Below are positions 5,486-64,000 of a stretch of DNA of 64,000 bases, in pieces (position 1 is the first letter of the stretch; every line of letters starts with the position of its first letter). The notes beneath the pieces are model-generated. The model saw only the letters and a program-made list of their open reading frames with translations, was not told the origin of the DNA and made no database searches. Source of the stretch: Gemmatimonadota bacterium. Lineage in GTDB: Bacteria > Latescibacterota > UBA2968 > UBA8231. Position numbers and translations under genes: made by a program. The DNA lies in contig JAYOYH010000009.1 of the NCBI GenBank assembly GCA_038153405.1, positions 28,725 to 92,724 on the forward strand, in the 5' to 3' direction.

Positions 5486-5491
5486 AAAGGG

Positions 5492-5511: not shown

Positions 5512-5549
5512 TTATTTGCAGCGGCATTCACGAGAGGAGATAGGGCGCG

Positions 5550-7049
<1,500 letters not shown>

Positions 7050-7080
7050 TAATTGAACATATTATGCGAGGAATGGCTAC

Positions 7081-12655: not shown

Positions 12656-12854
12656 AGGTTATCTCCGCGATAATGATTCGATTGTAGTCGACGTGCGGCG
12701 CTAATATAACTCATAGCGCGAGAGCGATCTACAGAGTTGATAACGCAATAAATCAGCTTGCTCAATAAATGCATATTGGTTATTTTTTCACTCAGAATTG
12801 AGTTGTAAAACGATGAGCTTCGTAGTGTATCGTCACTCAAGGGAGGTAGTTTCC

Positions 12855-20623: not shown

Positions 20624-20727
20624 CCCATAACATCATTATTCCCAATAAGTAAGGGATGATTTAACTCTCCCCAAGAGGCTTCTTTCTCCAAGCGCCTTGC
20701 GGCGGTCTACCAATCAGGAGATGCGTC

Positions 20728-21090: not shown

Positions 21091-21106
21091 AAGGTCATTG
21101 CGCGCT

Positions 21107-25633: not shown

Positions 25634-25743
25634 TTGACAGTGCGTAGCGAGTAGGGCTCTTTTCGTCTATATGATAATAGACTATTGGATATGCATAATA
25701 ATACGAACACTGCATGCGTAGTGTAAAGCGAATAGGGTGTGCG

Positions 25744-26922: not shown

Positions 26923-26931
26923 CTGCGCGCA

Positions 26932-30807: not shown

Positions 30808-30817
30808 GAGAAAGGCA

Positions 30818-35504: not shown

Positions 35505-35519
35505 TTTGGAGATTGTTAA

Positions 35520-36128
35520 ATGGCCGAAGAGAACGAAGATCTGCTCAAGAACCTCCAGGAAAAAAACTTGGAATTGAGCCTGTATAAAGCGCGCAAAATC
35601 TTTCTGTGGTCCGACGTCAACGACGAGTCGGCACGGGGTATCGTCACGCGTTTGCTGTCGCTCGATACAGAAGATCCGGAAAAGGAAATCGTGCTCTATA
35701 TCAACAGCCCCGGCGGCTCCGTGCACGATGGCATGGCCATCTACGATGCCATGCGCGCCATCAAGGCACCGGTCTCTACCGTGTGCATCGGCATGGCGAT
35801 GAGCATGGGCTCGTTTCTCCTTTCGGCCGGCGAACCCGGCCGCCGCTTTGCCTGGCCGCATGCGCGCATCATGATCCATCAGCCGCTGATTATGGGCACG
35901 GTGACGGGCACGGCAACTGACTTAGATATTCGCGCGCGAGAGACCATTCGCCTGCGCGAAGAGTTGAACCAGATCTACGCCGAGCACACGGGTCAGGACG
36001 TGGAGAAAATTGCCAAAGACACTGACCGCGACTTCTTTATGTCGGCGGCGGAGGCCAAGGACTACGGGATCATAGACGATGTGATTACCACCACCGCGCC
36101 GATGCCCAACGGCCAGGTAAAGAGCTAA
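35520..36128 (+). CDS. clpP: ATP-dependent Clp protease proteolytic subunit
   Basis: INSPGGSV, catalytic Ser in [11 protein letters not shown], His in IMIHQP, Asp in DTDRDFFM. Confidence 0.96.
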
Positions 36129-39876: not shown

Positions 39877-41232
39877 ATGAGTGAAAACGCCGCAACACAA
39901 CCCGGAGTCAGAACAGAGCCTGCATACTGTCATGTGATGGCCAAGCCGTCGGGTTCGGTGTGCAATATTGACTGCAAATACTGTTTCTATTTGGAAAAAG
40001 AGAAGCTCTATCCGGATGCGCGCAAGAGCTGGCGCATGGAAGACGAAACGCTAGAGCTATACGTCAAGCAGTACATCGAAGCGCAGGATGTGCCGGTCGT
40101 CAACTTCGCCTGGCAGGGCGGCGAGCCGACGCTGATGGGCTTGGACTTCTTTCGCCGCGCCGTCGAACTTCAGCAGCGCTATGCCAACGGCAAGGCCGTT
40201 ACCAACGCCTTTCAGACCAACGGCATCCTGCTCGACGACGAGTGGGGCGCCTTCCTTCATGAGCAGAAATTTCTCGTCGGCCTATCGATTGATGGGCCGC
40301 GCGAATTCCACGATCGCTACCGCGTCGACAAGGGACAGAAGCCGACCTTTGATCGCGTCTACGCCGGCCTGCAAACGCTCAAGCGCCACGCGGTCGAATT
40401 CAATACGCTGACCGTGCTGCAGAACCACAACGCCGATCACCCGCTGGAAATCTACCGCTTTCTGCGCGATGAGGGCAGCGGCTTTATGCAGTTTATTCCC
40501 ATCGTCGAACGCTCGGCCGATCAGCCAGAGGACGATGGACTGGAGCTGGTCGATCCGACGTTTGAAGGCAAGGCGCTGGTGACGCGCTGGTCCGTAGGCT
40601 CGACTCAATACGGGCGTTTTTTGTGTCGGATCTTCGACGAATGGGTGCGCAACGACGTCGGTCGCGTGTTCATACAGATGTATGATACGGCGCTGGGCGC
40701 TTGGATGGGTCAGGATCCCAGTCTCTGCATCTTTGCCCGCACCTGTGGCAAGGCGCTGATTATCGAGCACAACGGCGATCTCTACTCCTGCGACCACTTC
40801 GTCTATCCAGACTATAGACTGGGCAATGTGCACGAGACATCAATCCGCGATATGGTTGCCAGTCCGCAGCAGGAGAAGTTTGGCAACGACAAGGAAGATG
40901 CGCTGCCCCAATACTGCGTCGAGTGCGACTATCGCTTTGCCTGCAACGGCGGCTGTCCCAAACAGCGCTTCACGCGCACGCCACAGGGGGAAGCCGGCCT
41001 GAACTACTTGTGCAAGGGCTACAAGATGTTTTTCTCGCACGCCGATCCCTACATGCGCTTTATGGCCAACGAAGTGGGGCGTGGGCGACCAGCGGCCAAC
41101 GTCATGCAGTGGGCGCGACAAATGGATGCGCAAAGGGATGCTGTGCGCCTGCGCGTCGATCCGGGGCGCAACGATCCGTGTCCATGTGGCAGCGGCAACA
41201 AGTATAAGCGGTGCTGTGGCAAGGCCGCTTGA
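39877..41232 (+). CDS. Anaerobic sulfatase-maturating enzyme (radical SAM/SPASM) with a C-terminal SEC-C motif
   Basis: HVMAKPSGSVCNIDCKYCFY (CxxxCxxC). SPASM cysteines (CDHFVYP, CVECDYRFACNGGCPK). The tail DPCPCGSGNKYKRCCG is a SecA-type metal-binding motif. Confidence 0.9.
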   Translation: MSENAATQPGVRTEPAYCHVMAKPSGSVCNIDCKYCFYLEKEKLYPDARKSWRMEDETLELYVKQYIEAQDVPVVNFAWQGGEPTLMGLDFFRRAVELQQRYANGKAVTNAFQTNGILLDDEWGAFLHEQKFLVGLSIDGPREFHDRYRVDKGQKPTFDRVYAGLQTLKRHAVEFNTLTVLQNHNADHPLEIYRFLRDEGSGFMQFIPIVERSADQPEDDGLELVDPTFEGKALVTRWSVGSTQYGRFLCRIFDEWVRNDVGRVFIQMYDTALGAWMGQDPSLCIFARTCGKALIIEHNGDLYSCDHFVYPDYRLGNVHETSIRDMVASPQQEKFGNDKEDALPQYCVECDYRFACNGGCPKQRFTRTPQGEAGLNYLCKGYKMFFSHADPYMRFMANEVGRGRPAANVMQWARQMDAQRDAVRLRVDPGRNDPCPCGSGNKYKRCCGKAA

Positions 41233-49381: not shown

Positions 49382-52300
49382 TCAGCGCAGGAGCGTCATT
49401 TTGCGCATCTGCACCTGGCCGTCGACTTCGAGACGATACAGATACATACCAGAGGAGACCGGAGAGCCGCTGTCGTCGCGCGCGTCCCATTCCAGCACGT
49501 GCCGTCCGGGCACAAAGAGCCGATCGGCCAGCCGCCGCACGCGCTGCCCGGCACTGTTGTAGACGGTCAGTTGTACGGGCTGCGCCACATAGATGTCAAA
49601 GGGAATGGCCGTCGACGGATTAAAGGGATTGGGGAAGTTCTGCAGCAGGCCAACGGCCTGTGGTAGGGCATCACCGCGTGCCGAAAACGCCAGGGTGCCT
49701 ATGTTGCCGGCCTTATCGGTTGCCCGCACGCGCAGTGCGTTGTCTGCGGCCGGCATGTGGGTCGGATCGAGCGCCAGCGTCTCGCCATCCCAGCTGTAAG
49801 CCGAAGGCAATAGGGGAATTTCTTCCAGCAAGACCTCGATCTGAGCTAGGCCACTGCCGGCATCGGCAATGGTGAGGGCGTATTCGTCGCGCGCGACAAT
49901 GCGCGGCGGCGTGCGGTCCTCCATCAGGGCATAGCGCCCCAACTGACTCAATTCCACTTGCAGCGAACCGCCGCTAAGGGTCGAATGCATCCACTGCCAG
50001 CGCCCGTCTGCATAGCGGTAGATCCCCGCTCGCTCGGAAGAGCCATTGGGCAGCGCCGCGCGCAGACGGCTGCCGCGCCCTGCGTAGGGCTGCGGCGAAT
50101 GGGCCGTATAGGCGGGAGATAGGGGAATCAGTTCGGGGCCTGGATGGTCGATGCGGCTCGGTAAGAGAGCGATGACGGCGTCGTCGGCGAACGCTCCCTC
50201 GGCTATCTCAATGCGCATATCTGCGTGCGCAATGATCTTGCCGCGCCCGACGCGCACGGTGCCGACCTCAAAGGCATAGGAAGACCGAAAAAGCTGGCCG
50301 TCGACGATAGACAGGGCTAAGATGGATACGCTGCCCTCCTGGCCCGGCGTCAGCACGTGGCTGCTCTGCCAGATGCCCTCGGGACCTTCGCTCAGTGCCA
50401 AATCGGACCAGCTGCCGTCGTTGAGGCGCAGCTGCGGCGGCGCATCGGCCGCCATGCGGTCGATTAGGAATAGATCGATAAATTCCGGCTGCAGTGCGTT
50501 GGGCAGCGGCACGAGTACAAAATCCTCGCTCTCGGTGCCTGCGCTGCCGTCGGCCGGATAGACCTGAGCGATGACGAGCGCGGTGACTGTGCTGCCGTCG
50601 GGCAGGGTGGCGCGTAGCTCGATGATGTCGCTGCCCTGCCAAGGCGTAGCGCGCGTCAGCACCAGTGCCCCGCGTTCTACATCTAAGTTAACGCTGACAG
50701 GCTGCAGTCCTTGGGCCGTCCACTGCGCGTTGGCAGGGTCTACCTCGCCCGCTATTAATTCGCTCAACTGCAGGCGTATTTCTGTCGTGCCGGCAAAGAG
50801 TCCGACGGTCGTTTGCTCTGTTAGCTCTAGGGCAGATCGGGGAAGAACTACGGCGATGCGCAGCGTCGCTTGCAAGCGCGTGCCGTCGTCGCGCACGCCG
50901 ACCAGCGTAAAGAATTCCTCGCCGTGCCAGTCCTCGCCGGCAAAGACGATGAGCCGATGGGTTTCCGGATCGATGAGCACGCGTGCATGCAGCCCACCGC
51001 TTATGCTCCAGTCAAATTCGTCGGCGTCGGCGTGCGCAACGAATTGATCGAGGTCGATGCTCTGGTCAAATGCGCCGGCATCTAGGTTGAGTTCAGGCAG
51101 CGCGGCCAGTTCCGGCGGCTGGGCCGTTTCGACGGGTGCCTGTGCCACAATGCGCGCGCTCAGGCGCTGCTCGGGCAGGTCGGTTGTGCTGGCGACAAAG
51201 TAGATCGTCCCCTCGCCGTGCCATCCGCTGGCCGCGCGCAGCGTGACGTAGCGACTGAGCGGATCAATGTCAACGACGACGTTTGCATCGCTCTCTACGC
51301 GCCAGCTAATATCGCTGGGCGCCACGTCGCCTACCACATAGCTATCGAGGGGGAAACTGTATACTTGGCCGGCGGCTAGCTCGATGTCGGGCAGGGGAGA
51401 TAGCGCTAAAAAGGGGCCGCTCTGGCCCTCGGCGTTTAATAGGTGCAAGCGAAGCGTTTGCACCGCTTCGTGCCCATCGGGGTCGACGACGCGCACTTCG
51501 ATTTCCACCACAGAGGGAACGGCGCTTTCGCGCGGGTCGATGACCAGCACGTGGCTTTGGGGATCGACGCGCAGGGCGATATCGTCGCGCTGCGGCAGGA
51601 AGAAATCCATTTCGCTGGTCGCATGGTCGAGATCGAATACGAAGAGGTCGAGGTCGAGCGAGGCATCGACGCCGTCTACGGGAACGCGCACGTCGGGCAG
51701 TTCGGCAAAGAGCGGTTCGCCGCTGGCCGGCAGGGAGTAGACATCGACGGAAAAGGCCATTTGTTCGCCGGTGGGATCGGATACGATAAAGCGCAGCGTT
51801 TCGACGCCGACAAAGCCGCTTGGAGCGGAGATGCGCGCCATGCGACCGCTGCTCAGCTGCACGTTTAGCTGTTGCGAACCGGTTACTTCCCACGTCAGCG
51901 TCTCATCGGCGTCATCGGGATCGACGACGAGCTCGTCGAGGCCCAGCACGTAGCTATCGCCGGACGCCAGACTGAGGCGCTGGGGCTGTGCCACCAGCGT
52001 TGGGGCCAGCGAGGGGACGACGGTGACGACGAGGGGGCCGCTGGCCGTGAGGAGGCCCGAATCTTCGACGACCAGCGTAATTTCTTCGCTGCCGGTCCAC
52101 CCCCCGGCGGCCGAGACGATCAGGCGTCCTTCGGCCATTTCGAGTTGTACCTGCTCGTTGCCTACCCAGGAAAGTCGCAGATCCTCGCTGCGATCCTCCA
52201 CATCGGACAGCAGCTCGCTCAGGAGCAGGCTGTCGTCGCTGCGCCCGCGCGTCAGGCGAAGATTGGGCGCAGTCAAGAACTGGGGTGGATCGTTTATCGC

Positions 52301-53425
52301 AGCGACTTCGATATCTATCTGCAGTGAATCGGAAAAATCAAATGGGTCGCGGGCGATCAGCACAGCGCGCGTCTGGCCGTGCCAGTTGGCCTGTGGCGCG
52401 ATATGCGCCACGCGCGCTGCTGGGTCGATTGCAATGGCAATTTCCGGGGGGGCATCGACTGTCCATTCGAGCTGTTCGAAAGGCGTGTCGCTATCGGAGA
52501 CCAGCGCATCTAGGGCCAGCGCGTAGGCCTGGTCTTCGTTCAAGCCAAGTGCGCCAATAGGAGAAAAGGTCGGAGCGGCGTTGACGAATATTTCCAGCGT
52601 GTCGGATGTAGTCTGGCCGGCGGGGTTGCGCGCCGTCAGCACCAGCTGCTCCCACGGTGAGGCGTCGCTCGGAGCTTGCAGCAAGAGCGCGTTGTCCTCC
52701 ACATCGTGCGTGCTGTGCAGGCCCCCTATGGGGGAAATGGACCAGGTTATTTCGCCCAGCTCGTATATCGGGTCAAAGACGTAGTCGTCGAGGTCGAACC
52801 GATACGTGCCACCGCGCGGCAGCACCAGTCGCTCGGGCAAACCGCTGATTGTGATGCCCTGCACCGTGAGGCGCAGCGGGTGGATAAAGCGAAACGAGTG
52901 CTGGTCGCCTTCGGGGCGGAAAAAGCGCGTTTCGCGGGTGCCGCTTTCGTCGATGTGCACCTGCATTTCTGCGGCTGGTGCGAGCGCGCGCAGGCGGAAA
53001 GAGGCGATCGGTCCAGAACCCTGATCGGCGGCGCGCACGACGCTGTAGTCAAGTTGGATGCCCGGTGCGCTGGCCGCTGGATCTTCTTCGTCGAGCAGGT
53101 AGTTGCGGAAGATCTCGCCGTTGGCGAGAAAGGCGCCCGGAGCGAAGGGTTGGAAACCCGTCTGGGCCGCGCGGTCCTCGTCGACGATTTCTAGGTAGTC
53201 CGAGTCAACCGTGAGAAATACGGCGGCGCCGGACAGCGGCTCGTTTTCCGAGTCGATCCACAGCTCCACTTCAATTTCGTCGCCGACCATCACGGAAGTC
53301 GTGCTGGTATTGGCGCCCGCCGGGCGCAGCTCGAGGCGTGCCGCCATCAACGATGTGGGCGGAGTGATAACGACGAAAATGAGGAGAAATGCGAGGGCAA
53401 TCCGTTGTTTCATAAGAAGCTCCAT
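49382..53425 (-). CDS. Giant secreted protein A (1347 aa): cohesin-like N-terminal domain, about eight Ig-like repeat modules, Por/FlgD-type C-terminal domain
   Basis: Signal peptide MKQRIALAFLLIFVVITPPTSLMA. A cohesin-like segment (VMVGDEIEVELWIDSENEPLSGAAVFLTVDSDYLEIV). Repeats of about 97 aa, each carrying a [LI].W.[VI] motif. C-terminus LLQNFPNPFNPSTAIPF...GMYLYRLEVDGQVQMRKMTLLR. Confidence 0.9.
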   Translation of the reverse strand: MELLMKQRIALAFLLIFVVITPPTSLMAARLELRPAGANTSTTSVMVGDEIEVELWIDSENEPLSGAAVFLTVDSDYLEIVDEDRAAQTGFQPFAPGAFLANGEIFRNYLLDEEDPAASAPGIQLDYSVVRAADQGSGPIASFRLRALAPAAEMQVHIDESGTRETRFFRPEGDQHSFRFIHPLRLTVQGITISGLPERLVLPRGGTYRFDLDDYVFDPIYELGEITWSISPIGGLHSTHDVEDNALLLQAPSDASPWEQLVLTARNPAGQTTSDTLEIFVNAAPTFSPIGALGLNEDQAYALALDALVSDSDTPFEQLEWTVDAPPEIAIAIDPAARVAHIAPQANWHGQTRAVLIARDPFDFSDSLQIDIEVAAINDPPQFLTAPNLRLTRGRSDDSLLLSELLSDVEDRSEDLRLSWVGNEQVQLEMAEGRLIVSAAGGWTGSEEITLVVEDSGLLTASGPLVVTVVPSLAPTLVAQPQRLSLASGDSYVLGLDELVVDPDDADETLTWEVTGSQQLNVQLSSGRMARISAPSGFVGVETLRFIVSDPTGEQMAFSVDVYSLPASGEPLFAELPDVRVPVDGVDASLDLDLFVFDLDHATSEMDFFLPQRDDIALRVDPQSHVLVIDPRESAVPSVVEIEVRVVDPDGHEAVQTLRLHLLNAEGQSGPFLALSPLPDIELAAGQVYSFPLDSYVVGDVAPSDISWRVESDANVVVDIDPLSRYVTLRAASGWHGEGTIYFVASTTDLPEQRLSARIVAQAPVETAQPPELAALPELNLDAGAFDQSIDLDQFVAHADADEFDWSISGGLHARVLIDPETHRLIVFAGEDWHGEEFFTLVGVRDDGTRLQATLRIAVVLPRSALELTEQTTVGLFAGTTEIRLQLSELIAGEVDPANAQWTAQGLQPVSVNLDVERGALVLTRATPWQGSDIIELRATLPDGSTVTALVIAQVYPADGSAGTESEDFVLVPLPNALQPEFIDLFLIDRMAADAPPQLRLNDGSWSDLALSEGPEGIWQSSHVLTPGQEGSVSILALSIVDGQLFRSSYAFEVGTVRVGRGKIIAHADMRIEIAEGAFADDAVIALLPSRIDHPGPELIPLSPAYTAHSPQPYAGRGSRLRAALPNGSSERAGIYRYADGRWQWMHSTLSGGSLQVELSQLGRYALMEDRTPPRIVARDEYALTIADAGSGLAQIEVLLEEIPLLPSAYSWDGETLALDPTHMPAADNALRVRATDKAGNIGTLAFSARGDALPQAVGLLQNFPNPFNPSTAIPFDIYVAQPVQLTVYNSAGQRVRRLADRLFVPGRHVLEWDARDDSGSPVSSGMYLYRLEVDGQVQMRKMTLLR

Positions 53426-53692
53426 CCTCCCCGGAGGGAACGTGTAAGGCCTTGGGAGGCAAAAGCTATGCCAGTGCGCTCAGAGGGAGCAGCAGTGGAA
53501 AAAGCAGCAATCTGGTGGAACTTTCTGCCGTATATGGGAAGAATCTTCCATGCTGCACGTAGGTAGAATGCCCCTTTGCATGGGGTGACGGTGGGATCTC
53601 ACCCCTATAAGTAGTATGGCATTGATCTTGCTGAAGAGCAGGCGTTGAAGGGAATCGAACGTTGCCAAGATGGCGGCATTCTAAGGAATGGA

Positions 53693-56600
53693 ATGGTGAA
53701 GTCCTTCTCTGCTCAGAGTACATTGCGCGTGCACCAATCCTATTGGCAGCGGTCGACGCGCTACTCCATCCCGTGGATCACTGCGGGCCTGCTGCTGCTG
53801 CTGTGGTTGGCACCTCGGGTCTACGGTGCGGCGCCGATCTTTGAGAATCGCACGCCGGTGGGCTTTTCCACGGCCGATAGCACGACGCAGCAGGATTTCG
53901 TGCTGGGCGGTGAGATTGTGGTGCGCGCCGATCTCAACCAGGCGGCGACGCCGACCTACCCTGTCATTGGACACTTTCACAACATCGAACGCAGCGTGCA
54001 GGTTGAAGGCAGCGATGTCGACGGTCTGCAGACCGATATCGCCGTAGATGGCGACGGCACGGTGCACATGGCCTGGATTGCGCAGGAGGTCGTCAGTCCG
54101 GTCTCGACGCCGGTCTACTACGTGCGCTACGCGCGCAGCGAAGACAGCGGACGCACTTTCTCGGCGCCGGTCAGCGTGTCGGGTGGTTTGCGATTTGACT
54201 TGTTGACCGTCAATACGGCAGCCAATAGCAGCGGGTTTTCGACGCTCGACCTGGAAGTCGACAGCCGCGGCAATCCGCGCGTTGCCTACGCGATGAATCA
54301 CTCACCCGACGGCCACACCGCCAAGTTTAGCGGCAGCGGCGACGCCGACAACGTCTATTTCAACTACTCGCAAAACGGCGGCGCCTCGTGGCTGCCGTCC
54401 GATCGCGCTATCGTCGTCAACGACACCGTTACGCTCGGCAACCTGCAGGGCCGTGCCAGCGCCTTCCCGCGCCTAGTCGTCGACCAGCGCGACAATATAT
54501 TCATCAGCTACGTGCGCGGTTCGAGCCAGGGTTCGGGCAACGACGACATTATGTTGGCCAAGGTCGATCGTTCGACGACGCCCTTTGATATGGAGCGCGT
54601 CGGCTCGCTTGGTGGGGTGGGCAGCAGCGGCGGGGTCCGCATATCGCCAGAGGCCGGGCGCCACAGCGGGCCGGATCTAGCCGTGGGCACCGGTGACGTG
54701 CTGCACCTGATCTACTTCAACGATACCGGCAACGACATCGAGCATAAGACGCTGCTGGCCGACTCGTGGAATACGGTAGGCGGCACCGGTTGGAACCAGT
54801 CGGTCGACGGCGCCGACGTAGACGACTTTGTCGATGAGGCGACGGTGGCGGCCATTGAGTCGGACGCCAACTTCTTCTTTCCCAGCATCGCCGTTGATAA
54901 GCAGAGTTCTCCCGACAAGGTCTATGCTGTTTATAAGTTTGGCGATGCCACCTTTGAGACGGTAGCATTTAATCGCTATACCTACGACAATGCTATCGGC
55001 GGCAGTGCCGGTTGGAATACGGCCGCGGCGATGCCGGTGTGGAGCACGGCGACTTCACCGGTCTTTGCCGACGGCAACGCAGCGTATAATATCGAGTTGG
55101 AATGGACGCACACCGAACGCGTCGCCGTGTTGGTAGACGACCGCCTGCCCGATCGCGGCGAGGTGCACATCGCATTTAGCGCAGGTTATTCTAGCAGCGG
55201 TGAACACGACATCTACTACGGCTATTACAACGGTGCTTCGTGGATTTTGCCGGAAAAGGTGGCCGACGACGATTCAGATACCGGCGTCGAGGACGGCATC
55301 GCCACCAGCGACGTATATCTCGCCTCGCCTGCCTTGGCCAAGGCGACCGGGCAGTCCAACCTATTTATGGCATTTTCCGGCGGTGCAGGCGAGGGGTTGG
55401 GTATCAACGGCGTCAGCGATGTAAACGGGCACGCCTATTTTAAGGTACTGGGCCGATCCATAACGTCGGAAGACGAGTCGGTGCCCGTGGGGGCCTTTGC
55501 CTACAACCTCAGCTACACGCCGGTCAATCCGCAAAATCACAGCAGCGCAATCGACGACAATCTGGTCTACGTGCACGTGGCCGACAATGTCGACGGCACG
55601 AGATTGGGCGCGACCGGCAGGCGCCAAACGGACGGCTTTCTGGCCGGTGACTGGGAGTCGGTCGGCGTGCGTTCGAGCGATGACGACAAATACTTCGAAG
55701 GTCGTTTTAACGAAGACGCTAGCTCCGGCCAGGAGTGGGGCGACGACGACGATAAAATTGGTCTGCTCGTCAAGTTCAATGTACTGGGCAGCGATTCGCC
55801 GGTTAATGTGCAGGTCATAACTAATAGTACGGCCAGCGCCAGCGGCACGGGGTTGGGCGCGCGCTCTGTGCGCGTGGGGACGGACCCATCGGCTATTGCG
55901 GGAGTGGGCTCGTTTTTTATGCTGGGCGCCGATATCGACATTATCGATTCCAATACTGCCCCCAGGGTGCAGGTGCTGCAGCCCGACGGCGTGGGCGACG
56001 AGGCCAATACATCGTATCCCATTATGTACAACCTCAGCGACACCGACGACCAAATAGTCAGCGGTGGGTTGAAGGCGGCGCTGTATTTTTCTCCCGACTC
56101 TTCGCTGGCCTCAGTGCAAGATATCCGCATTTTCGCAACGCTTATCGCCGATGAAAACGACCAGACGAGCGTATTTTCCAGCGGCACCAACGATCTATCG
56201 GAAGGACTGAGCGAGAGCTATACCTGGGATGATCCGCCCACTGCGTTAAAGGCCAAGCTCTTTGCCAGCATCAATCAGGTCATAAGCGGTAAGTATTACA
56301 TTTACCTTGTCGCCGACGACCAGAAAAATCCTCCGGTCTTCGCGCGCAGTCCCGGTGCGCTGACCATAAAGCACGTGCCGATTATTGTGCACGTCGATCC
56401 AGCTATGGCTGACACGGTCGACACCGGCGTGCGCTCGGGTGCCACGGCCAATCCCTATGATCTCGATTTTACCGTGCGCGATTTCGACCTGCAGGGAGCC
56501 GCGGAAATACAGCTATTCTACTCCTCGGTCAGCGGGCTGCAGTCGGTGTCAGTTATCGGCACGTTTCCCAACCAGAAATTTACCCTCGGCAAGAGCGCGT

Positions 56601-59431
56601 CTGGCGTGCGCGCCATTCCCATCACGCATACGGATACGCTGACGAGCAGCTATGTAGAATTCTCGTGGGATATTAGAGATTCAGTCGCCGTGCGCGTCGG
56701 GGCGAGCATCGACTCGCAGACGGTAGCTGAGGGCAGCTACTTTATTTACCTGGTCGCCAGCGACTCAATTTCTACCACCGTGGGGCAGAGCGAGGCGATG
56801 CTGACGGTTAAGCATTCGCCTTCGTTTACCTTTTACGAGCCGCCGCGCGACACGCATCGCCGCATCAATACGGGATCGCAGCCCATTTTCACCGTGCAGT
56901 GGCAGAAGGGACGCAGCGACCTCGACTTCGACGACAATGCGACGATAGATCTCTACTTTACGACGGACAGTCCCGCCGTCGTCAACTACGAGAACTACGC
57001 CGATTCGCTGCTCAAGGACAGCGATACGCGCGTGATCGTCAAAGGCCTGCGCGAAGATGCTGAAGGCGCATCCGATATGTATGTCTGGGATTTGCGCAAT
57101 CCACCCAACGATACGCCGCTCAGCGGGCAGAAAGTCTGGCTATACGCCATGATCAGCGACGAGCGCGGCAACAGCACTACGGCACTGGGTGGCGCGCTAA
57201 CCATGACGCACGATCCGCATATCAACTTGCTCAGTTCCAAGTTGGACGACTACGATGCATTCGTTAAAAACGACGTTCTACGCCTCAAGTGGGATGATTA
57301 TATGGTAGACGATGGTGTGGGCACAGACGATGCCTACATCCGCCTCTATGCATCCACGCAGGCCAATCTGACTACGCTGTCGGCGTTAGAAGCCGACGTG
57401 GGCGTCAACGGCTTTCTCATCAATAGCTCGAACGGATTGACGACGGGAACGATTGCCAGCGTGCGCGAGGACAGTGCTAATTTTTTCGATTGGAACACCA
57501 AGCTATTTGGTGCCGCGGTCAACTATTACGTGTATGCAGCTATCAGCAGGGATGCGACGTTTAGCAACAATGCCGCGACGACGTTTAGCCGCAGCGCCAC
57601 GGCGCTGACTATTGGCGCGGGTAGCGCCACGCCGAATATCAGCTTGAGTCCAACGGATCAAACTGTGGCGGTCAATGATACCGTGACGCTGGACGTCATG
57701 GTGCAGCACAGCAGTGCGATCAATTTCGTGCAAGTTGTGCTCAACTTTGGCGATTCCAGCTTCTCTATAGTCGACCAGAGCACGGACGCCGGACTGCAGC
57801 CCTTTATCGATTTAAATCAGGTATTTTCCGGGGCCACGCCCATCGAGAATGCCTACGATTCATCCGCTTCTAAACTGCGCTTCGCCAAGTCTACGTTCCA
57901 AGGTGAGCTAGTCGGTTCGGCTACGCAGCCAGCTCGCCTGGCGCGTTTTCAGCTGGTGCCAACCTCCAGCCTAGCGGCGACGCCGTCCGTCACTTTTCAG
58001 ACGGGGGAAACGGGCACGGTATTGGGCGTAGTGGGCAAAACTGATCCGCTCGACAACGGCGAGGGATTATCGCTGCTAGACCCCAATTTCAAGCGCGTCG
58101 AGCGCGGCAGCATTACGGCGGTGGTCGAGTTGGAAGGGCGCACGCTGGGATCGGGTGACTTCTCCTCTCTGTTGGATATACATCTGCGCCACCCCGGCAG
58201 CACAATCGACATTGCAGATGCCGTTTTTCTCAGCGCTAACGATGCCAACGTCTCTACGACGGATACGCTCGAAAAACAGAGTGCCGCCAATGGCGCACTG
58301 ACGTTGACGAATGTGCCGGCTGGACGCTACGTGCTGACGGTCAAAGACACCAGCCACGTCAGCGCGCGCACGGATACGTTTACCGTAAGCAATGGGCAAA
58401 CGGTTGCCGTTGGCAGCGACATTCCCGGGTTTTTTGGCTCGGACCTGCGCGGCGATCCGACGACGACGCTGGCCAATTCGGGCAGGCGGCTGATTGCCGG
58501 GGATGCCAGCGAAGACAACGAAATTAACGAAGACGACGTCAATATTATAATTGCCGCCTGGGGCGCCAATAGCGCGGTGGCCAATTTTCGCCAGGCCGAC
58601 CTAAACAACGACAACCAAGTCGGCGCGGCCGACCTAACGGCGACGACCTCTAATTTTGGCAATAGCGAGGGCTTTGGTGCACCGCCCGTATACAAGCGCG
58701 CTGCGGCGGGAGATAATGCAGGTTCATCCATTGAAGTCGTTCCGCTCTTCGATCGCCGCGTCGCTCCCTTTGTCGGCCAGCGCGTAGATGTGGTCGTGCA
58801 GGCGCGCGACTTGGACGATCTGGCCGGCTATGAGTTCGATCTTCAGTTCGATCCGCGCGCCCTGCGCCTGCTGCCGGGCGGCCAACAGGCCGGCGACGTA
58901 TTTGGCGGCAATCCGCGCGGGGCAGTATTCGACGCGCGCGTCGACGATGCCGGGCATCTGCGCGTCATGGCCTCGCGCTACGGCAAGGAGTGGTCGGCAC
59001 AGGGCGATGGCCAGTTGGTCAGGCTGCGCTTTGAAGTGCTGCGCGAAGATGCGCTGCAGACGCTGCAGCCGGGCGGCGGCACGCTGTTGAGCACGCTATA
59101 CGACCAACAGCCGGTTCGTTGGGGAGGGTCGCTGCTCGACTGGATCCTGCCGCAGGTGCCTGATTTAGCGCAAAATTTCCCCAATCCCTTTAATCCGAGC
59201 ACCAGCATTCCACTGGCGCTGCCCCAGCGCACCCAGGTGCGCCTAGCCGTCTTTAACGTGCTGGGTCAGAAGGTGCGCACGCTGATCGACGGGCCGATGG
59301 AAGCCGGCTATCACACCATGGTGTGGAACGGTCGCGATGAAGCGGGTAGCCAAGCGGCAGCCGGCACCTACTTCTACCTGCTGGAAGCCGACCAATTTCG
59401 CCAGACGCGCAAGATGACGTTGGTTAAGTGA
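53693..59431 (+). CDS. Giant secreted protein B (about 1912 aa): BNR/Asp-box propeller-like region, four unknown ~140-aa modules, cohesin-like / dockerin / cohesin-like region, Por/FlgD-type C-terminal domain
   Basis: Asp-box motifs (ARSEDSGRTFS, YSQNGGASW). A dockerin-like pair of Ca loops (DASEDNEINEDD and DLNNDNQVGAAD). Cohesin-like segments (VTLDVMVQHSSAINFVQVVLNFG, VDVVVQARDLDDLAGYEFDLQFDP). C-terminus LAQNFPNPFNPSTSIP...GTYFYLLEADQFRQTRKMTLVK. Start trimmed to ATG 53693; the listed start is TTG 53645. Confidence 0.9.
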   Translation: MVKSFSAQSTLRVHQSYWQRSTRYSIPWITAGLLLLLWLAPRVYGAAPIFENRTPVGFSTADSTTQQDFVLGGEIVVRADLNQAATPTYPVIGHFHNIERSVQVEGSDVDGLQTDIAVDGDGTVHMAWIAQEVVSPVSTPVYYVRYARSEDSGRTFSAPVSVSGGLRFDLLTVNTAANSSGFSTLDLEVDSRGNPRVAYAMNHSPDGHTAKFSGSGDADNVYFNYSQNGGASWLPSDRAIVVNDTVTLGNLQGRASAFPRLVVDQRDNIFISYVRGSSQGSGNDDIMLAKVDRSTTPFDMERVGSLGGVGSSGGVRISPEAGRHSGPDLAVGTGDVLHLIYFNDTGNDIEHKTLLADSWNTVGGTGWNQSVDGADVDDFVDEATVAAIESDANFFFPSIAVDKQSSPDKVYAVYKFGDATFETVAFNRYTYDNAIGGSAGWNTAAAMPVWSTATSPVFADGNAAYNIELEWTHTERVAVLVDDRLPDRGEVHIAFSAGYSSSGEHDIYYGYYNGASWILPEKVADDDSDTGVEDGIATSDVYLASPALAKATGQSNLFMAFSGGAGEGLGINGVSDVNGHAYFKVLGRSITSEDESVPVGAFAYNLSYTPVNPQNHSSAIDDNLVYVHVADNVDGTRLGATGRRQTDGFLAGDWESVGVRSSDDDKYFEGRFNEDASSGQEWGDDDDKIGLLVKFNVLGSDSPVNVQVITNSTASASGTGLGARSVRVGTDPSAIAGVGSFFMLGADIDIIDSNTAPRVQVLQPDGVGDEANTSYPIMYNLSDTDDQIVSGGLKAALYFSPDSSLASVQDIRIFATLIADENDQTSVFSSGTNDLSEGLSESYTWDDPPTALKAKLFASINQVISGKYYIYLVADDQKNPPVFARSPGALTIKHVPIIVHVDPAMADTVDTGVRSGATANPYDLDFTVRDFDLQGAAEIQLFYSSVSGLQSVSVIGTFPNQKFTLGKSASGVRAIPITHTDTLTSSYVEFSWDIRDSVAVRVGASIDSQTVAEGSYFIYLVASDSISTTVGQSEAMLTVKHSPSFTFYEPPRDTHRRINTGSQPIFTVQWQKGRSDLDFDDNATIDLYFTTDSPAVVNYENYADSLLKDSDTRVIVKGLREDAEGASDMYVWDLRNPPNDTPLSGQKVWLYAMISDERGNSTTALGGALTMTHDPHINLLSSKLDDYDAFVKNDVLRLKWDDYMVDDGVGTDDAYIRLYASTQANLTTLSALEADVGVNGFLINSSNGLTTGTIASVREDSANFFDWNTKLFGAAVNYYVYAAISRDATFSNNAATTFSRSATALTIGAGSATPNISLSPTDQTVAVNDTVTLDVMVQHSSAINFVQVVLNFGDSSFSIVDQSTDAGLQPFIDLNQVFSGATPIENAYDSSASKLRFAKSTFQGELVGSATQPARLARFQLVPTSSLAATPSVTFQTGETGTVLGVVGKTDPLDNGEGLSLLDPNFKRVERGSITAVVELEGRTLGSGDFSSLLDIHLRHPGSTIDIADAVFLSANDANVSTTDTLEKQSAANGALTLTNVPAGRYVLTVKDTSHVSARTDTFTVSNGQTVAVGSDIPGFFGSDLRGDPTTTLANSGRRLIAGDASEDNEINEDDVNIIIAAWGANSAVANFRQADLNNDNQVGAADLTATTSNFGNSEGFGAPPVYKRAAAGDNAGSSIEVVPLFDRRVAPFVGQRVDVVVQARDLDDLAGYEFDLQFDPRALRLLPGGQQAGDVFGGNPRGAVFDARVDDAGHLRVMASRYGKEWSAQGDGQLVRLRFEVLREDALQTLQPGGGTLLSTLYDQQPVRWGGSLLDWILPQVPDLAQNFPNPFNPSTSIPLALPQRTQVRLAVFNVLGQKVRTLIDGPMEAGYHTMVWNGRDEAGSQAAAGTYFYLLEADQFRQTRKMTLVK

Positions 59432-62400
59432 TGCTGCGCTCGGCAATCTACATGGCGTGTGCAGCACTCTGGGTAAGCGCGGCGCAGGCTGCCAAACCGG
59501 TATTTGAAAACGCCACGCCGGTCGGCTTTTCGCCGCAGGACAGCACCGTCGTCGAGGACTTTACGGCGGGCTCTACCGTCAGCGTGCGCGTCGATTTGGA
59601 CCGCGCGGCTACCTACGACTATCCGGTTGTAGGCCATTTTCACAATCTGGAAAAGAGCGTGCAGCTGGGATCGGTCGATACCGACGGCATGCAGGTCGAT
59701 ATCGCCATGGTCGACGTCGCGCCGTTTGGCGTGCGCGCCGAGGGGCCGGCCCTAGGACTTACCAGCACGGCCGTGCATCCGTCAATTCACATGGCGTGGA
59801 TTGAGCAGACGACGTCTGTGCCGCGCGCGAGCTTTCCCTATACGGGCGGCAGCACGCCGCTCTACCGCGTCATGTATGCGCGCAGTTCCGACGGCGGTGC
59901 GAATTTTTCCTCGCCGGTTGCCGTAAGCGGAAATATCACCTACCACCCACTGACGACCAACGGCAGCGGCAACTCGTTCTCGACGCTCGATTTGGAAGTA
60001 GACAGTGGCGGTCAACCGCGCGTGGCCTATGCCTTTGTCTCGACGGCCGATCACGAGCGCAAGAAAAACGTCTACTTCGCCTATTCGCAGGACGGGGGCG
60101 GCTCGTGGCAGACCCCCATTGTAGTTAATGACACCAAGGTAGGTGCGACGGAGAGTCGCAACACGGCCTTTCCGCGCATGATCGTAGACGATCGCGACAA
60201 CGTGTTTATCAGCTACGTGCGCGGCGCCAGTACGGGTGCGGGTAGCGACGACATTATGATGGCCAAGGTCAATCGCTTTTCCTCGCCCTTTTCCATTCTA
60301 CCCATAGGCGAGAGCGGCGGAACGGGCACGGGCGGCATTCGCCTGACGCCCAATGGCGATCGCAGCACGGGGCCCGACGTAGCGCTGGGTGACGGCGACG
60401 CGCTGCACGTGGTCTACTTCAGCGACACCAACAACCGCATCGAACACAAGCGCCTCGCCACCGATACGACGTGGGTGGACGTGAGTGCCGCGGGTTGGAA
60501 TCAGAACGCGGCCGGGGCCGCACTCTCTTCTTTTGTTGACGAAGCGGCGTCCAATGCGGGCATAGAAACAGATGCGACTTACTATTTTCCCAGCGTCGTC
60601 GTCGATCGCAACGCGTTGCCCGATCGGGTATACTCGCTGTTTAAGTGGGCCGACAATACGCCCGTAGAAGGCATCTACTTTAACGCCTACCGCGACGTAG
60701 GTGCGCTCGGAGGGAATGCTGCGTGGGGCACGGCGACCTCGCTGTGGAATACGGCGGGGACGGCCCTTTTTAGCGATGGCGCCAATGCCTACAACGTCGA
60801 GCTCGACTGGGAAATAACCGAGCGCGTAGCGGCCGTAGTTGACGATCGTCTAGAAGATAGGGGCGATCTCCACATCGCCTTTAGCGCCGGTTATAGCGGC
60901 GGCGGTGAGCATGATATCTACTACGCGCGCTACAACGGGACCTCGTGGACGCTGCCGGAAAAGGTCGCCGACGACGATTCGGACAGCGGCACGGAAGACG
61001 GCATTGCCGCGGCGGATGTGTTTCAGCTGAGTCCGGCGCTGGCCATGCATCCCGATTCGCTCAACGTATATATGGCCTTTGCCGGCGGCGCGGGCGAGGG
61101 ATTTGGTCTCGGACACGTGACCAATGTAAATCACCACGCCTATTTCAAGGTGCTAGGGCGCAATGCGACGTGGGAGGACGACTCGGTGCCGGTGGGCGCC
61201 TACCAGTACACGCTGTCCTATAAACCGGTTAACGCGCAGACGGTAGCTTCACAGGTGGACGACAATGTGATCTACGTGCACGTGGCCGATGCTGGGGATG
61301 GATCGGGGTTGGGTGCGCGCGCCGATTCGTCGGATGGGTTTTTGGCCGGCGACTGGGAGTCGGTGGGTCTGAAGCTAGTAGACAACGACAAGTATTATGA
61401 GGGAAGAGTAAACGAAGACAGCGCCGGTTCAAACGAGTGGGGAGACGACGACGACAAGATCGGTCTGCTGGTAAAGCTCAATGTACTAGGCAGCGATTCG
61501 TCGACCAATGTGCAGGTCATTACCAATAGTACGGCCAGCGCCGGAGGCACCGGATTGGCGGCGCGCAGCGTGCGCGTGGGCAGCAATCCATCGGGCGCGT
61601 TTGTCGGCGCCGGTTCGTTTTTCATGCTCGGTGCAAATATCGATATCGTCGCCAGCAATACGGCCCCGAGCGTTTCTATCGCCCAGCCCGACGGCAGCGG
61701 CGATACGGCCAATACGTCCTACGCCATTCAGTATAGCGCCACCGATGCCGACGACGATCTGGGCGGCAATTTAAAGATAGCCCTCTATGCCTATCCGACG
61801 GGCGGCCTGCGCAGCGTGCAGGACATACGCATCTTCGCGACGTTGATCGCCGACGAGAACGACCACGTGGCCGTCAACGCCAATGGCACGGGTGATCTGG
61901 CAGAAGGTTCCAGCGAGACCTATACCTGGGACGATCCGCCGCAGGCGCTGAAAAACGCGGCGCTCTTCGCCTCGATTCTCCGCGTGCCGAGTGGAAATTA
62001 CTACATCTACGCCGTGGTTGATGACCAGCGCAACCCGCCGGTCTATGCCGTCAGTCCCGGCCCCCTTACCGTGCGCCACGGCCCGATCGTCCAGCAGATT
62101 GATCCGGTGGTGGCCGATACGGTCGATACCGGCGTGCGCACCGGCCTGAAGGCCAATCCCTACGACCTCGACCTAAGCGTAGTCGACTACGATAGCGATG
62201 CGCGCGTGCAGCTTTTTTACTCGTCTGCCAGTGGTTTGACGTCGGTCTCAGTGCGGGGTAACTATCCCAACAACGCCTTTGTTCTGGGCAAGAGCATTGC
62301 CGGCACGCGCGCTACGGCCATTACAGCTTCGACGACTATGACGGCGCACAAAAGAGAATTTAGCTGGGACGTCACGTCGCCGCTCGTGGCACAGGGGGCC

Positions 62401-64000
62401 TATTATATCTACGCTGTCGCTACCGATTCGATTACGACTACCGTAGGACAGAGTAGCGTTCCGCTGGTGGTGCGCCACTCGCCTTCGTTCGCTTTTTACG
62501 AGCCGGCAGTCGATACGCAGCGCCGCATCGACTCGGGTTCGCAGCCGATCTATACAATTCAATGGCAAAAGGGACCTGGCGATAAGGATTTAGATAGCAA
62601 CGCCTCGATCGCGCTTTACTTCACGACGGACGACCCAGCCAGTACCGATCACGCGACGGCCTCCGGTGCTTCGCCGACGTCGCTGACGAGCGACGGCGAT
62701 ACTCGGCTGATTGTCAGCGGACTGACCGAAGACAGCGACGGTCCGGCCGATATGTATGCGTGGGATCTGCGCAATCCTCCCAATGCGCTGCCCAAGAGCG
62801 GACAGCGCGTGTGGATCTATGCGTTGATCAGCGATGGTACCAACACGACGGTTGCGCGCGGCGGTTCGCTAATTTGGACGCACAACCCCTTTGTCCTGCT
62901 CAAGACGCGCCTGCCCGATATAAGTCGCGGCGATATCGTACGCCTCGAGTGGGAAGACTATTTGGTCGACGATGGTTCGGGCACAGACGACGCCTACATA
63001 CGCCTCTACGCTGCTTCCAATGCTACGCACACTACGCTGCAATCTATTGAGAGCGATCTAATCGACGGAGGCAATGACGTCTTCATTATCAACAGCTCTG
63101 ACGGAACGGCGGGCGGCGCGATAACCAATCTGCGCGAAAGCGCGGACGATGCCTTTAACTGGGATACGAATACGGCCAGCTTTTCCATGGCAGAGGGTTC
63201 GTTTTCCATCTATGCGGGCATTAGTGCCGATCCGACTTTTGCCGACAACTCGACGGGGCGCCTGAGCAAGGCGTCCAATCCGCTGGTCGTTGGCGTCAGT
63301 AGCGGCACGACGCCACAGCTGTCGCTCAGCCCCAACAAAGTGGTGGCGGCAGCGGGCGATACGCTGACATTTGATGTGGTTGTTCAGTCCAGCGGCGAGT
63401 CGATTGAGTCGATTAGCGCCGTGATCGATGTGGACGCCAGCCTCTACACCGTGCTCAATAGCGGTACGCCCTTTACTGACCGAGGTGCGGTATTTGTAGG
63501 CGGTACGATTGCGGAAAACGCGTTTTCGAGCGGCAAACTGCGCTTTACCAAAAACAAGGCGGGCGGTGAAATCGTTGGCTCGACGCAAACGCAAAAGCCC
63601 CTGGCGCGCTTTCAGGTCGTGCTCAAGAGCGATTTCAGCAATGCGCATATGCTGCCTTTTGGGGCAGAAGCGGCCCTCAGCGTCAGCGGGGCATCCGCCG
63701 CTATCAAGCAGAGCAGCGGTCTGTCGGTGCAGAGCGCGCAGATCCGCTCCGTGGCGCGTGGTGCGTTGCTGGCTACGGTGATGCTCGAGGGGCGTGCGCT
63801 GGGCAACGGCAATCACGCGACGCTGCTCGACGTGCATCTGCGCCAACCGGGCAGCACCATCGATATTATAGATGCAACCTTTCGCGCCGCCAACGATGCC
63901 GATGCAACGAGTGCCGACACCGTCGAGGTGCAGACCGCATCGACGGGCGACTTTTCGCTCACCCATATTCCATCTGGGCGCTATGTGCTGACGGTTAAAG
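59431..64000 (+). CDS. Giant secreted protein C, a paralogue of B (more than 1523 aa, 3' end outside the window)
   Basis: Not in the ORF track because there is no stop in the window. ATG 59431 shares a base with the stop of B (GTGATG). My translation gives MLRSAIYMACAALWVSAAQAAKPVFENATPVGFSPQD..., colinear with B. It contains Asp-boxes (YARSSDGGANFS, YSQDGGGSW) and runs to LDVHLRQPGSTIDIIDATF...IPSGRYVLTVK at the window edge. No other forward ORF in this frame is listed between 59431 and 64000. Confidence 0.85.
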   Translation, partial: MLRSAIYMACAALWVSAAQAAKPVFENATPVGFSPQDSTVVEDFTAGSTVSVRVDLDRAATYDYPVVGHFHNLEKSVQLGSVDTDGMQVDIAMVDVAPFGVRAEGPALGLTSTAVHPSIHMAWIEQTTSVPRASFPYTGGSTPLYRVMYARSSDGGANFSSPVAVSGNITYHPLTTNGSGNSFSTLDLEVDSGGQPRVAYAFVSTADHERKKNVYFAYSQDGGGSWQTPIVVNDTKVGATESRNTAFPRMIVDDRDNVFISYVRGASTGAGSDDIMMAKVNRFSSPFSILPIGESGGTGTGGIRLTPNGDRSTGPDVALGDGDALHVVYFSDTNNRIEHKRLATDTTWVDVSAAGWNQNAAGAALSSFVDEAASNAGIETDATYYFPSVVVDRNALPDRVYSLFKWADNTPVEGIYFNAYRDVGALGGNAAWGTATSLWNTAGTALFSDGANAYNVELDWEITERVAAVVDDRLEDRGDLHIAFSAGYSGGGEHDIYYARYNGTSWTLPEKVADDDSDSGTEDGIAAADVFQLSPALAMHPDSLNVYMAFAGGAGEGFGLGHVTNVNHHAYFKVLGRNATWEDDSVPVGAYQYTLSYKPVNAQTVASQVDDNVIYVHVADAGDGSGLGARADSSDGFLAGDWESVGLKLVDNDKYYEGRVNEDSAGSNEWGDDDDKIGLLVKLNVLGSDSSTNVQVITNSTASAGGTGLAARSVRVGSNPSGAFVGAGSFFMLGANIDIVASNTAPSVSIAQPDGSGDTANTSYAIQYSATDADDDLGGNLKIALYAYPTGGLRSVQDIRIFATLIADENDHVAVNANGTGDLAEGSSETYTWDDPPQALKNAALFASILRVPSGNYYIYAVVDDQRNPPVYAVSPGPLTVRHGPIVQQIDPVVADTVDTGVRTGLKANPYDLDLSVVDYDSDARVQLFYSSASGLTSVSVRGNYPNNAFVLGKSIAGTRATAITASTTMTAHKREFSWDVTSPLVAQGAYYIYAVATDSITTTVGQSSVPLVVRHSPSFAFYEPAVDTQRRIDSGSQPIYTIQWQKGPGDKDLDSNASIALYFTTDDPASTDHATASGASPTSLTSDGDTRLIVSGLTEDSDGPADMYAWDLRNPPNALPKSGQRVWIYALISDGTNTTVARGGSLIWTHNPFVLLKTRLPDISRGDIVRLEWEDYLVDDGSGTDDAYIRLYAASNATHTTLQSIESDLIDGGNDVFIINSSDGTAGGAITNLRESADDAFNWDTNTASFSMAEGSFSIYAGISADPTFADNSTGRLSKASNPLVVGVSSGTTPQLSLSPNKVVAAAGDTLTFDVVVQSSGESIESISAVIDVDASLYTVLNSGTPFTDRGAVFVGGTIAENAFSSGKLRFTKNKAGGEIVGSTQTQKPLARFQVVLKSDFSNAHMLPFGAEAALSVSGASAAIKQSSGLSVQSAQIRSVARGALLATVMLEGRALGNGNHATLLDVHLRQPGSTIDIIDATFRAANDADATSADTVEVQTASTGDFSLTHIPSGRYVLTVK

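Follow-up and report, generated by a model that had tools for sequence, protein, structure and literature searches.

We analysed a 64,000-nucleotide stretch (hereafter the window) of contig JAYOYH010000009.1 from a Gemmatimonadota bacterium placed in Latescibacterota by GTDB (assembly GCA_038153405.1), and found at its end a conserved, divergent locus of three giant genes, A, B and C, whose products combine cohesin and dockerin modules with type IX secretion system (T9SS) sorting domains. B and C are translationally coupled paralogues, and the spacer between A and B carries a pair of oppositely facing sigma-54 promoter motifs. Neither the promoter pair nor the coupling had been reported in an earlier note on this DNA, which had been made from the letters alone. 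The reading that we favour, to which we give slightly less than an even chance, is that the three proteins make an inducible, T9SS-exported assembly attached to the cell surface and joined by cohesin-dockerin pairs, with propeller heads exposed.

Arrangement and conservation of the three genes

Positions throughout are window coordinates; the window ends inside gene C. The genes are as follows.

49382-53425, minus strand: gene A, 1347 aa from the first ATG, probably 1343 aa from the ATG at 53413
53693-59431, plus strand: gene B, 1912 aa from the ATG at 53693
59431-64000, plus strand: gene C, with an ATG start, 1523 aa, open at the window end and cut inside its X module

The layout described in the earlier note, with three giant open reading frames (ORFs) of which A on the minus strand diverges from B and C on the plus strand, was borne out, and the A-B spacer measures 267 bp. 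Orthologue alignment and the position of a GGAGG ribosome-binding site indicate that A more likely starts at its second ATG (53413, MKQRI...). For gene B, which ends at 59431, the candidate starts are TTG 53645, ATG 53693 and GTG 53696, and the conservation of the block AAGGAATGGAAT-GTG across loci restricts the choice to 53693 or 53696. The TGA stop of B and the ATG of C share 1 nt (TGATG, 59429-59433), and in all 24 of the 24 loci the spacing between the two genes ranges from this 1-nt overlap to a gap of about 12 nt, indicating one message with coupled translation. C is a paralogue of B, as had been proposed, with about 50% identity by BLAST; such a level of identity points to an old duplication of which both copies were retained. 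The signal peptides previously ascribed to the three proteins correspond, in a reading by eye, to hydrophobic N-terminal leaders with an AxA-type site at their end. The mature proteins contain no cysteine and have isoelectric points of 4.3-4.5, in keeping with an extracellular location.

Scanning of one genome per species with protein C yielded 26 loci, nearly all of them from metagenome-assembled genomes (MAGs). Most are labelled Candidatus Latescibacterota, and some Gemmatimonadota, Handelsmanbacteria or "uncultured bacterium"; the closest relative (L001) is 94-95% identical. BLAST against all ORFs of the 26 loci revealed the A(-)/B(+)/C(+) order wherever the contig was long enough, in about 20 independent MAGs, with A orthologues divergent from B in about 18 loci. 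Orthologues of B are about 58-95% identical to B, and those of C 58-94% identical to C. The lengths of B and C are nearly fixed (1870-1995 aa), whereas A orthologues vary between 975 and 1347 aa. A search with protein B retrieved 154 relatives, nearly all listed with the same 1870-1995 aa apart from a few partial sequences, and annotated only as "hypothetical", "T9SS type A sorting domain-containing" or "FlgD Ig-like domain containing". In addition, an exhaustive search of 1.84 billion representative proteins with a profile of the N-terminal head domain gave 38 proteins at E <1e-30, mostly fragments of the same family together with a few more divergent long members, and the weaker matches were generic BNR blades only; this result argues for a lineage-restricted, unnamed family. 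One divergent member (P0127, at 1398-7826 of locus L027), of 2142 aa and the same architecture, is a single gene located beside rpsT.

The part of C that lies beyond the window could be read in L001, where the orthologue (94% identical) has a full length of 1883 aa and includes the dockerin and the tail that are absent from the window. Downstream of it are hflX, lon, glnD and a leucine-rich repeat (LRR) gene. Across the loci, hflX comes after C in 11 cases and lon after it in seven, and this constancy indicates a vertically inherited chromosomal locus and rules out a mobile island. The earlier note had allowed for an assembly chimera, which is ruled out by the recurrence of the arrangement in about 20 independent assemblies and by the even GC content along the window. 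On the other side, the gene beyond A varies with the genome, being PhyH in the window and a solute-binding protein in locus L021. Scans of the window for tRNAs and Rfam families gave no matches.

Modules of the three proteins

The modules relevant to assembly and export were located as follows.

52841-53344, minus strand: A cohesin-like module (residues 28-195), from hhalign and a weak PDB profile match
57623-58117, plus strand: B cohesin-like module 1 (residues 1311-1475), from AlphaFold2, Foldseek and hhalign
58118-58432, plus strand: B beta-sandwich, CarboxypepD_reg-like (residues 1476-1580), with PF13620 at 21.6 bits, below threshold
58493-58696, plus strand: B dockerin (residues 1601-1668), whose two calcium loops of EF-hand type are DASEDNEINEDD and DLNNDNQVGAAD
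58739-59137, plus strand: B cohesin module 2 (residues 1683-1815), from Pfam Cohesin and Foldseek
59171-59428, plus strand: B C-terminal sorting domain (residues 1827-1912), from TIGR04183 and FlgD_ig
49385-49639, minus strand: A C-terminal sorting domain (residues 1263-1347), from TIGR04183 and FlgD_ig

When the C-terminal 608 aa of B were scanned alone, Pfam Cohesin (PF00963) matched module 2 with 39 bits against a threshold of 24.1 (E 1.2e-9), over residues 1694-1787 (window about 58772-59053). Whole-protein Pfam scans, including that of a 1928-aa B, returned no cohesin; since the fragment scan recovered what the whole-protein scan had missed, whole-protein negatives on giant multidomain proteins can mislead and were not trusted. 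Fragment scanning also matched Pfam Cohesin in 12 of 20 relatives. The AlphaFold model of the C-terminal fragment of B reached an overall predicted local distance difference test (pLDDT) score of 75.6, with values of about 80-93 over both cohesin modules and of about 88-93 over module 1. The best Foldseek match of this fragment in PDB was the type II cohesin dyad 3l8q (E 5e-10, 543 aligned columns), and others were the cohesin 9, X module and type II dockerin of CipA (4fl4_I, 3kcp_A), the sixth-ranked 2w1n and many single cohesins, the latter with TM-scores of 0.54-0.68 on the target. Thus, AlphaFold2 and Foldseek found the cohesin jelly-roll fold in both B modules.

The module of A was recognised through hhalign, which aligned it to both B modules, with 93% and E 3e-7 for module 2 and 92.7% and E 4e-7 for module 1; all five control modules stayed below 1.5%. 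The sole PDB matches of its profile were three cohesins of Ruminococcus flavefaciens, at a weak E of 0.03-0.06, and four of 13 A orthologues matched Pfam Cohesin weakly. In C, cohesin-like module 1 lies at about 63307-63780. The trio has altogether five distinct cohesins (one in A, two in B and two in C) for two dockerins, and a search of the window and of the 26 loci, which amount to about 450 kb, gave no other genes with either module. Within the orthologue groups, conservation is lowest for the cohesins, which also differ most between B and C (0.30-0.33 identity).

On the contrary, the dockerin is the most conserved module within groups, with 0.80 identity among B and 0.75 among C sequences, and fixed differences separate the two types (IIAAW in B against IDAAW in C, GAxDL against GVEDL, and NFGNS against NISNS). 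In both of its loops, DASEDNEINEDD and DLNNDNQVGAAD, EF-hand positions 1, 3, 5 and 12 are occupied by D, N or S, and residues D1604, D1608, N1609, D1615, D1636, N1639, D1640 and D1647 are invariant in 51 sequences. A dockerin was matched in 17 of 20 relatives at E <0.01 (best 1e-5) and in the distant relative P0127 with 30 bits, over the Pfam threshold, and the family profile matched the solved dockerins 3kcp_A (E 6.7e-4) and 2b59_B (E 1.6e-3). The beta-sandwich that separates cohesin module 1 from the dockerin takes the place of the X module in the cohesin-X-dockerin order of CipA (as in 3kcp_A and 4fl4_I), and in P0127 its match to PF13620 passes with 33.3 bits. These results agree with the earlier description of a cohesin-like module at the N-terminus of A and of a dockerin with two calcium loops between two cohesin-like modules in B; the dockerin draws its profile support from the family as a whole and stays below threshold in B. 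The folds and profiles found also speak against chance matches of the motifs, which the same note had considered.

With respect to the tails, the shared Por/FlgD-type ending of A and B held up in both models: NCBIfam TIGR04183, the T9SS type A sorting domain, gave 24.8 bits for A and 27.0 for B (cut-off 23), and Pfam FlgD_ig gave 31.3 and 37.3 bits, respectively (threshold 27). The C orthologue of L001 has the same tail (FlgD_ig 36.3 bits). Elsewhere in the window, an 833-aa secreted protein (20999-23500, plus strand) with a LapA-like aminopeptidase core has a C-terminal stretch that matches the end of the T9SS protein PorZ (E 5.5e-11), which makes it a possible further T9SS cargo. The tail differs in subtype from those of A, B and C and was missed by the tail hidden Markov model built here.

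The remaining modules are the following.

53825-55462, plus strand: B sialidase-like beta-propeller head, assigned with low confidence (residues 45-590), with two Asp-boxes and weak BNR matches
55463-55960, plus strand: B conserved segment (residues 591-756), 64-68% identical within orthologue groups
55961-57622, plus strand: B repeats R1-R4, four repeats of about 135-145 aa (residues 757-1310), from hhalign
50546-52840, minus strand: A tandem immunoglobulin (Ig)/cadherin-like repeats (residues about 196-960), with Pfam Big_9 at 2e-13 and the NCBIfam tandem-95 repeat at 3e-9

The BNR propeller of the earlier note was sustained in part. BNR_2 and BNR_4 matched the B head far below threshold (13-19 bits against 27-31), and the Foldseek matches of its model were GH33 sialidases, the PL24 ulvan lyase, GH145 and PLL lectins (E 1e-9 to 1e-7). 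However, the model was poor (pLDDT 51, predicted TM-score 0.6, about 24 strands), so that only its fold class was used, and the Foldseek TM-scores were low, at about 0.25-0.4 (0.25-0.31 on the query), with 7-bladed lyases and lectins matching too. The B head is therefore described as a low-confidence sialidase-like propeller. Each of the B and C heads has two Asp-boxes, and no RIP motif ([FY]RIP-like) was found in either, as the note had observed for the BNR region; neither head showed the RIP motif or arginine triad together with the family model that mark GH33 sialidases. Beyond the head, residues 591-756 of B had no family or PDB match and a pLDDT <35, and repeats R1-R4 aligned with each other in hhalign (24-97% probability, E 5e-10 to 8e-4) and had no Pfam match. 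Protein A runs from its leader and cohesin-like module through about eight tandem Big_9/cadherin-like repeats of about 95 aa and about 300 unmatched residues to the T9SS type A tail. The best PDB match of the A profile, the Deinococcus HPI S-layer protein (E 0.21), was dismissed as chance, nothing being significant. As already suspected, no catalytic module is recognisable in the trio: Pfam and NCBIfam scans, including fragment scans, revealed no glycoside hydrolase (GH), polysaccharide lyase (PL), peptidase or carbohydrate-binding module (CBM) in A, B or C.

The A-B spacer and other genes of the window

Alignment of the spacer from 20 loci, of which 19 were counted as holding it for the promoter tests, revealed conserved blocks, two of which fit the sigma-54 consensus TGGCAY-N5-TTGC. 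The features of this region are listed below.

53459-53473, minus strand: sigma-54 -24/-12 consensus facing A (TGGCATAGCTTTTGC), in 18 of 19 spacer-holding loci
53517-53549, no strand assigned: tandem palindromes 20 bp apart (GGAACTTTCTGCC, GGAAGAATCTTCC), candidate site for a sigma-54 enhancer-binding protein
53617-53631, plus strand: sigma-54 -24/-12 consensus facing B (TGGCATTGATCTTGC), in 19 of 19 spacer-holding loci
53661-53677, plus strand: predicted hairpin in the B 5' leader (GTTGCCA-AGA-TGGCGGC), just upstream of an AAGGA ribosome-binding site

The 64-kb window contains exactly two matches to the sigma-54 consensus (0.38 expected), and both lie in the A-B spacer. Of the 19 loci, 18 have both sites in this orientation and the nineteenth has the B-facing site alone; conserved coding motifs of A and B lie 491-524 nt apart in 18 of 20 loci. 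An exact GGAA-N5-TTCC palindrome stands at a similar place in the interval that separates the promoters in 14 of the 19, and it is often repeated at a distance of 20-22 bp; in the window the copies are located at 53517-53529 (one mismatch) and 53537-53549. They lie about 90-105 bp upstream of both predicted transcription starts, a range in which activators of sigma-54 promoters usually have their binding sites. On the basis of motif and position, the tandem palindromes are a candidate activator-binding site.

A hairpin of 5-9 bp was predicted, in single-sequence folds, at the equivalent position of the B leader in 17 of 18 loci, with differing stem sequences; the maintenance of the structure while the stem varies looks like compensatory change. 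This element may affect the stability or the translation of the mRNA. RNAalifold on a MAFFT alignment of the leader returned no structure, owing to misaligned stems. In locus L027, an exact sigma-54 consensus is present at 584-598, about 800 nt 5' of the start of P0127, in a 940-bp stretch with no called gene.

Other genes of the window encode functions of several kinds. A gene at 39877-41232 (plus strand) codes for a radical SAM enzyme of the anaerobic sulfatase-maturating type (528-532 bits, over the cut-off); the next genes encode a DUF6807 protein and a Gfo/Idh/MocA-type dehydrogenase, and the group hints at the use of sulfated glycans. An efflux operon of the resistance-nodulation-division (RND) type, with an adaptor and two tandem permeases, occupies 25714-33967 (plus strand); the first permease is unusually long (1291 aa) and was matched by the family model in three separate stretches, suggesting a large insertion. 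DUF5069 likewise matched in three stretches the protein encoded at 37097-38407 (plus strand). The adjoining gene (33972-35879, minus strand) encodes a PMT_2-type glycosyltransferase with many cysteines, which could have a function in envelope glycosylation and was not linked to the trio. Two small ORFs resemble nucleoid proteins by appearance: one at 12744-13070 (plus strand), with a Lys/Ala/Pro-rich repeat, is similar to histone H1-like proteins, and the N-terminus of another at about 20665-21087 is similar to HU/IHF.

Proposed assembly, alternatives and related systems

In the reading that we favour, A, B and C would be cargo of the type IX (Por) pathway, exported with Sec leaders and recognised by their C-terminal sorting domains, and would most likely stay attached to the outer face of the outer membrane. 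We infer this export and attachment from the leaders and tails, and the pairing of modules and the ligand of the head from module content and fold. B and C, probably made together in roughly equal amounts from their coupled message, would each supply one calcium-dependent dockerin and two cohesins in the order cohesin-X-dockerin-cohesin, and A would contribute one cohesin, borne by the tip of its stalk of Ig/cadherin-like repeats. The three proteins could then assemble with each other by cohesin-dockerin pairing. The presence of two conserved dockerin types and five unlike cohesins suggests specific reciprocal pairings, leading to a hetero-oligomer or network, and such a network would display the sialidase-like propeller heads, probably glycan-binding, at its periphery. 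A single enhancer-binding protein acting on both divergent promoters may turn on the whole trio, and this shared sigma-54 switch suggests an inducible surface structure rather than a constitutive coat. The uniform co-inheritance of the three genes beside hflX and lon, and the lack of recognisable enzyme or CBM modules and of other cohesin or dockerin genes in the vicinity, likewise favour this reading.

Several observations weigh against this proposal. The excess of cohesins over dockerins means that some sockets may serve other partners. Module 1 of B and the A module of the window have no Pfam match of their own; the B dockerin itself scores 16-17.7 bits, under the PF00404 threshold of 22.9, and its part of the AlphaFold2 model, with three predicted helices, is of low confidence (pLDDT 25-65). 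Neither the T9SS machinery genes (PorK/L/M/N, SprA/Sov, PorU, PorV) nor an rpoN or enhancer-binding protein gene was seen among the genes scanned in the window. P0127 has no adjoining A-like gene or paralogue in L027, so that a protein of this kind can apparently work alone. Finally, codon bias does not mark the trio as very highly expressed: its effective number of codons (Nc) is 41-42, within a window range of 38-50. An abundant constitutive S-layer finds no support in this unremarkable value. A more specific proposal, which we regard as doubtful, is that B and C co-polymerise by reciprocal dockerin-cohesin links into a two-component, T9SS-anchored, sigma-54-switched coat on the outer membrane, similar to an S-layer or capsule, with plug-and-socket modules in place of crystalline self-association and A as a third component, and that this coat is lineage-defining for Latescibacterota.

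The surplus of cohesins could also mean that A, B and C form a cellulosome-like anchoring scaffold, whose free sockets recruit dockerin-bearing hydrolases, lyases or peptidases encoded elsewhere and concentrate polymer-degrading enzymes on the cell surface. The ratio of five cohesins to two dockerins fits this explanation, as does the cohesin-X-dockerin order found at the C-terminus of the CipA scaffoldin, and the anaerobic sulfatase maturase of the window would suit a polysaccharide-degrading lifestyle. A cohesin scaffoldin with a cell-attachment C-terminal domain and dockerin-bearing enzymes has been inferred in Cloacimonadota (PMC8542988), and a statement in PMC7081726, citing Farag 2017, ascribes "cellulosome-affiliated enzymes" to Latescibacteria. 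However, neither the window nor the about 450 kb of related loci yielded an enzyme with a dockerin, the three proteins lack a recognisable CBM, and classical scaffoldins have many near-identical cohesins in variable copy number, whereas here each cohesin is unique and lengths are fixed. We consider a recruiting scaffold unlikely.

The absence of family models also bears on the idea that the B and C heads are catalytic, either as divergent exo-sialidases or as lyases of the GH33/GH145/PL24 kind, with cohesins and dockerins merely joining two isoenzymes as in the sialidase/GH84 complexes of Clostridium perfringens. No other conserved block is as long as the head, in which many R, D, E, H and Y residues are invariant, the best fold matches of the B head are GH33 sialidases, the PL24 ulvan lyase and GH145, and the cohesin-fibronectin type III (FN3) structure of C. 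perfringens GH84C (2w1n) is among the top matches of the B fragment. Nevertheless, with the RIP motif missing and just two Asp-boxes, no GH or PL model matched, a low-confidence head model (TM-scores of 0.25-0.31 on the query) and lectins of the same fold matching equally well, enzymatic heads seem to us quite improbable. A further explanation takes the cohesin- and dockerin-like modules as beta-sandwich spacers and a calcium-binding hinge of independent adhesins, with A, B and C acting separately and without mutual binding. Many non-cellulosomal modules of these types reportedly have no demonstrated partner, two of the three cohesin-like module types here lack a Pfam match, and the singleton P0127 exists. 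Strict co-inheritance, translational coupling and shared regulation would be unneeded for independent adhesins, though, and the dockerin is the most conserved module, with B and C types differing in a fixed way; adhesins are in addition usually variable in length, whereas B and C are constant. On these grounds we see little likelihood of separate adhesins and retain the mutually joined A/B/C assembly as the preferred reading.

The pairing of cohesins with dockerins is understood almost entirely from the cellulosomes of Gram-positive bacteria. In this locus the modules, fused to a type IX tail, belong to a trio that is conserved and co-regulated and contains no recognisable enzymes, in an uncultured lineage from the superphylum Fibrobacteres-Chlorobi-Bacteroidetes (FCB). 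If they pair, the trio would be a clear case of cohesin-dockerin assembly building a surface structure on an outer membrane, and would give initial access to the cell envelope in Latescibacterota. With two dockerins and five cohesins, the possible interactions form a small, defined set that is directly testable, and the paired sigma-54 promoters with their shared candidate activator site provide a concrete regulatory hypothesis.

The trio resembles the clostridial cellulosome (CipA cohesin 9-X-type II dockerin of C. thermocellum and type II cohesins of the SdbA/ScaA type) in its jelly-roll cohesins, its two-loop calcium dockerin and its order of cohesin, beta-sandwich and dockerin (3kcp_A, 4fl4_I), and the principle of assembly would be common to both. 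It differs in that the locus encodes no CBM and no dockerin-bearing enzymes, the three proteins showing no CBM or GH module and neither the window nor the 26 loci any other dockerin or cohesin gene. Moreover, one polypeptide here holds both cohesin and dockerin and continues with an additional cohesin, no cohesin is a repeat of another, and the anchor is a T9SS sorting domain instead of an S-layer homology (SLH) or sortase anchor. Type IX secretion in the FCB-superphylum host implies an outer membrane, unlike in Clostridia.

In C. perfringens, large secreted proteins with glycosidase heads are joined by cohesin-dockerin pairs without a cellulosome, as exemplified by the cohesin-FN3 of GH84C (2w1n) and the dockerin of the NanJ sialidase. 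Those heads are proven enzymes with recognisable GH33 or GH84 modules, whereas the trio head fails the sequence tests; the C. perfringens proteins have no T9SS tail, and their sequence relation to the trio is confined to the shared modules. TfsA and TfsB of Tannerella forsythia are two large, adjacent, co-transcribed paralogues with T9SS C-terminal domains that form a surface layer. They are not known to share sequence similarity with the trio or to contain cohesin or dockerin modules, no lattice is known for A/B/C, and the sigma-54 control of the trio argues for an inducible over a constitutive layer. In the non-cellulolytic Archaeoglobus fulgidus, one of the adjacent genes AF2375 and AF2376 carries a cohesin together with a dockerin, and these modules bind inside the pair, although these are small archaeal proteins of another architecture, with no propeller and no secretion tail. 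Non-cellulosomal cohesins and dockerins were already known, and Peer and colleagues are said to have described them in 2009.

A parallel in a related host is Candidatus Stygibacter (Cloacimonadota), also of the FCB superphylum, for which a scaffoldin-like protein with cohesins as well as a C-terminal domain that is conserved was inferred in silico and surface attachment was proposed, with citation of a T9SS review (PMC8542988). Both systems are known from sequence alone. That scaffoldin is a single protein of 3,755 aa with tandem cohesins and CBMs, accompanied by separate dockerin-bearing GH18, GH57 and peptidase genes (PMC8542988), whereas the trio consists of three proteins with mixed cohesins and dockerins, propeller heads and no enzymes. 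For Latescibacteria themselves, "cellulosome-affiliated enzymes" are mentioned in the part of PMC7081726 that cites Farag 2017. Our literature search found no paper on Latescibacteria with dockerin and cohesin, or with T9SS, or on this protein family, and Youssef 2015 mentions neither dockerin, cohesin nor T9SS. Compared with the cohesin scaffoldin anchored by a C-terminal domain already proposed in Cloacimonadota, the locus described here adds a conserved trio in which cohesin and dockerin are mixed in each of two coupled paralogues, with no enzyme or CBM modules and with paired sigma-54 promoters.

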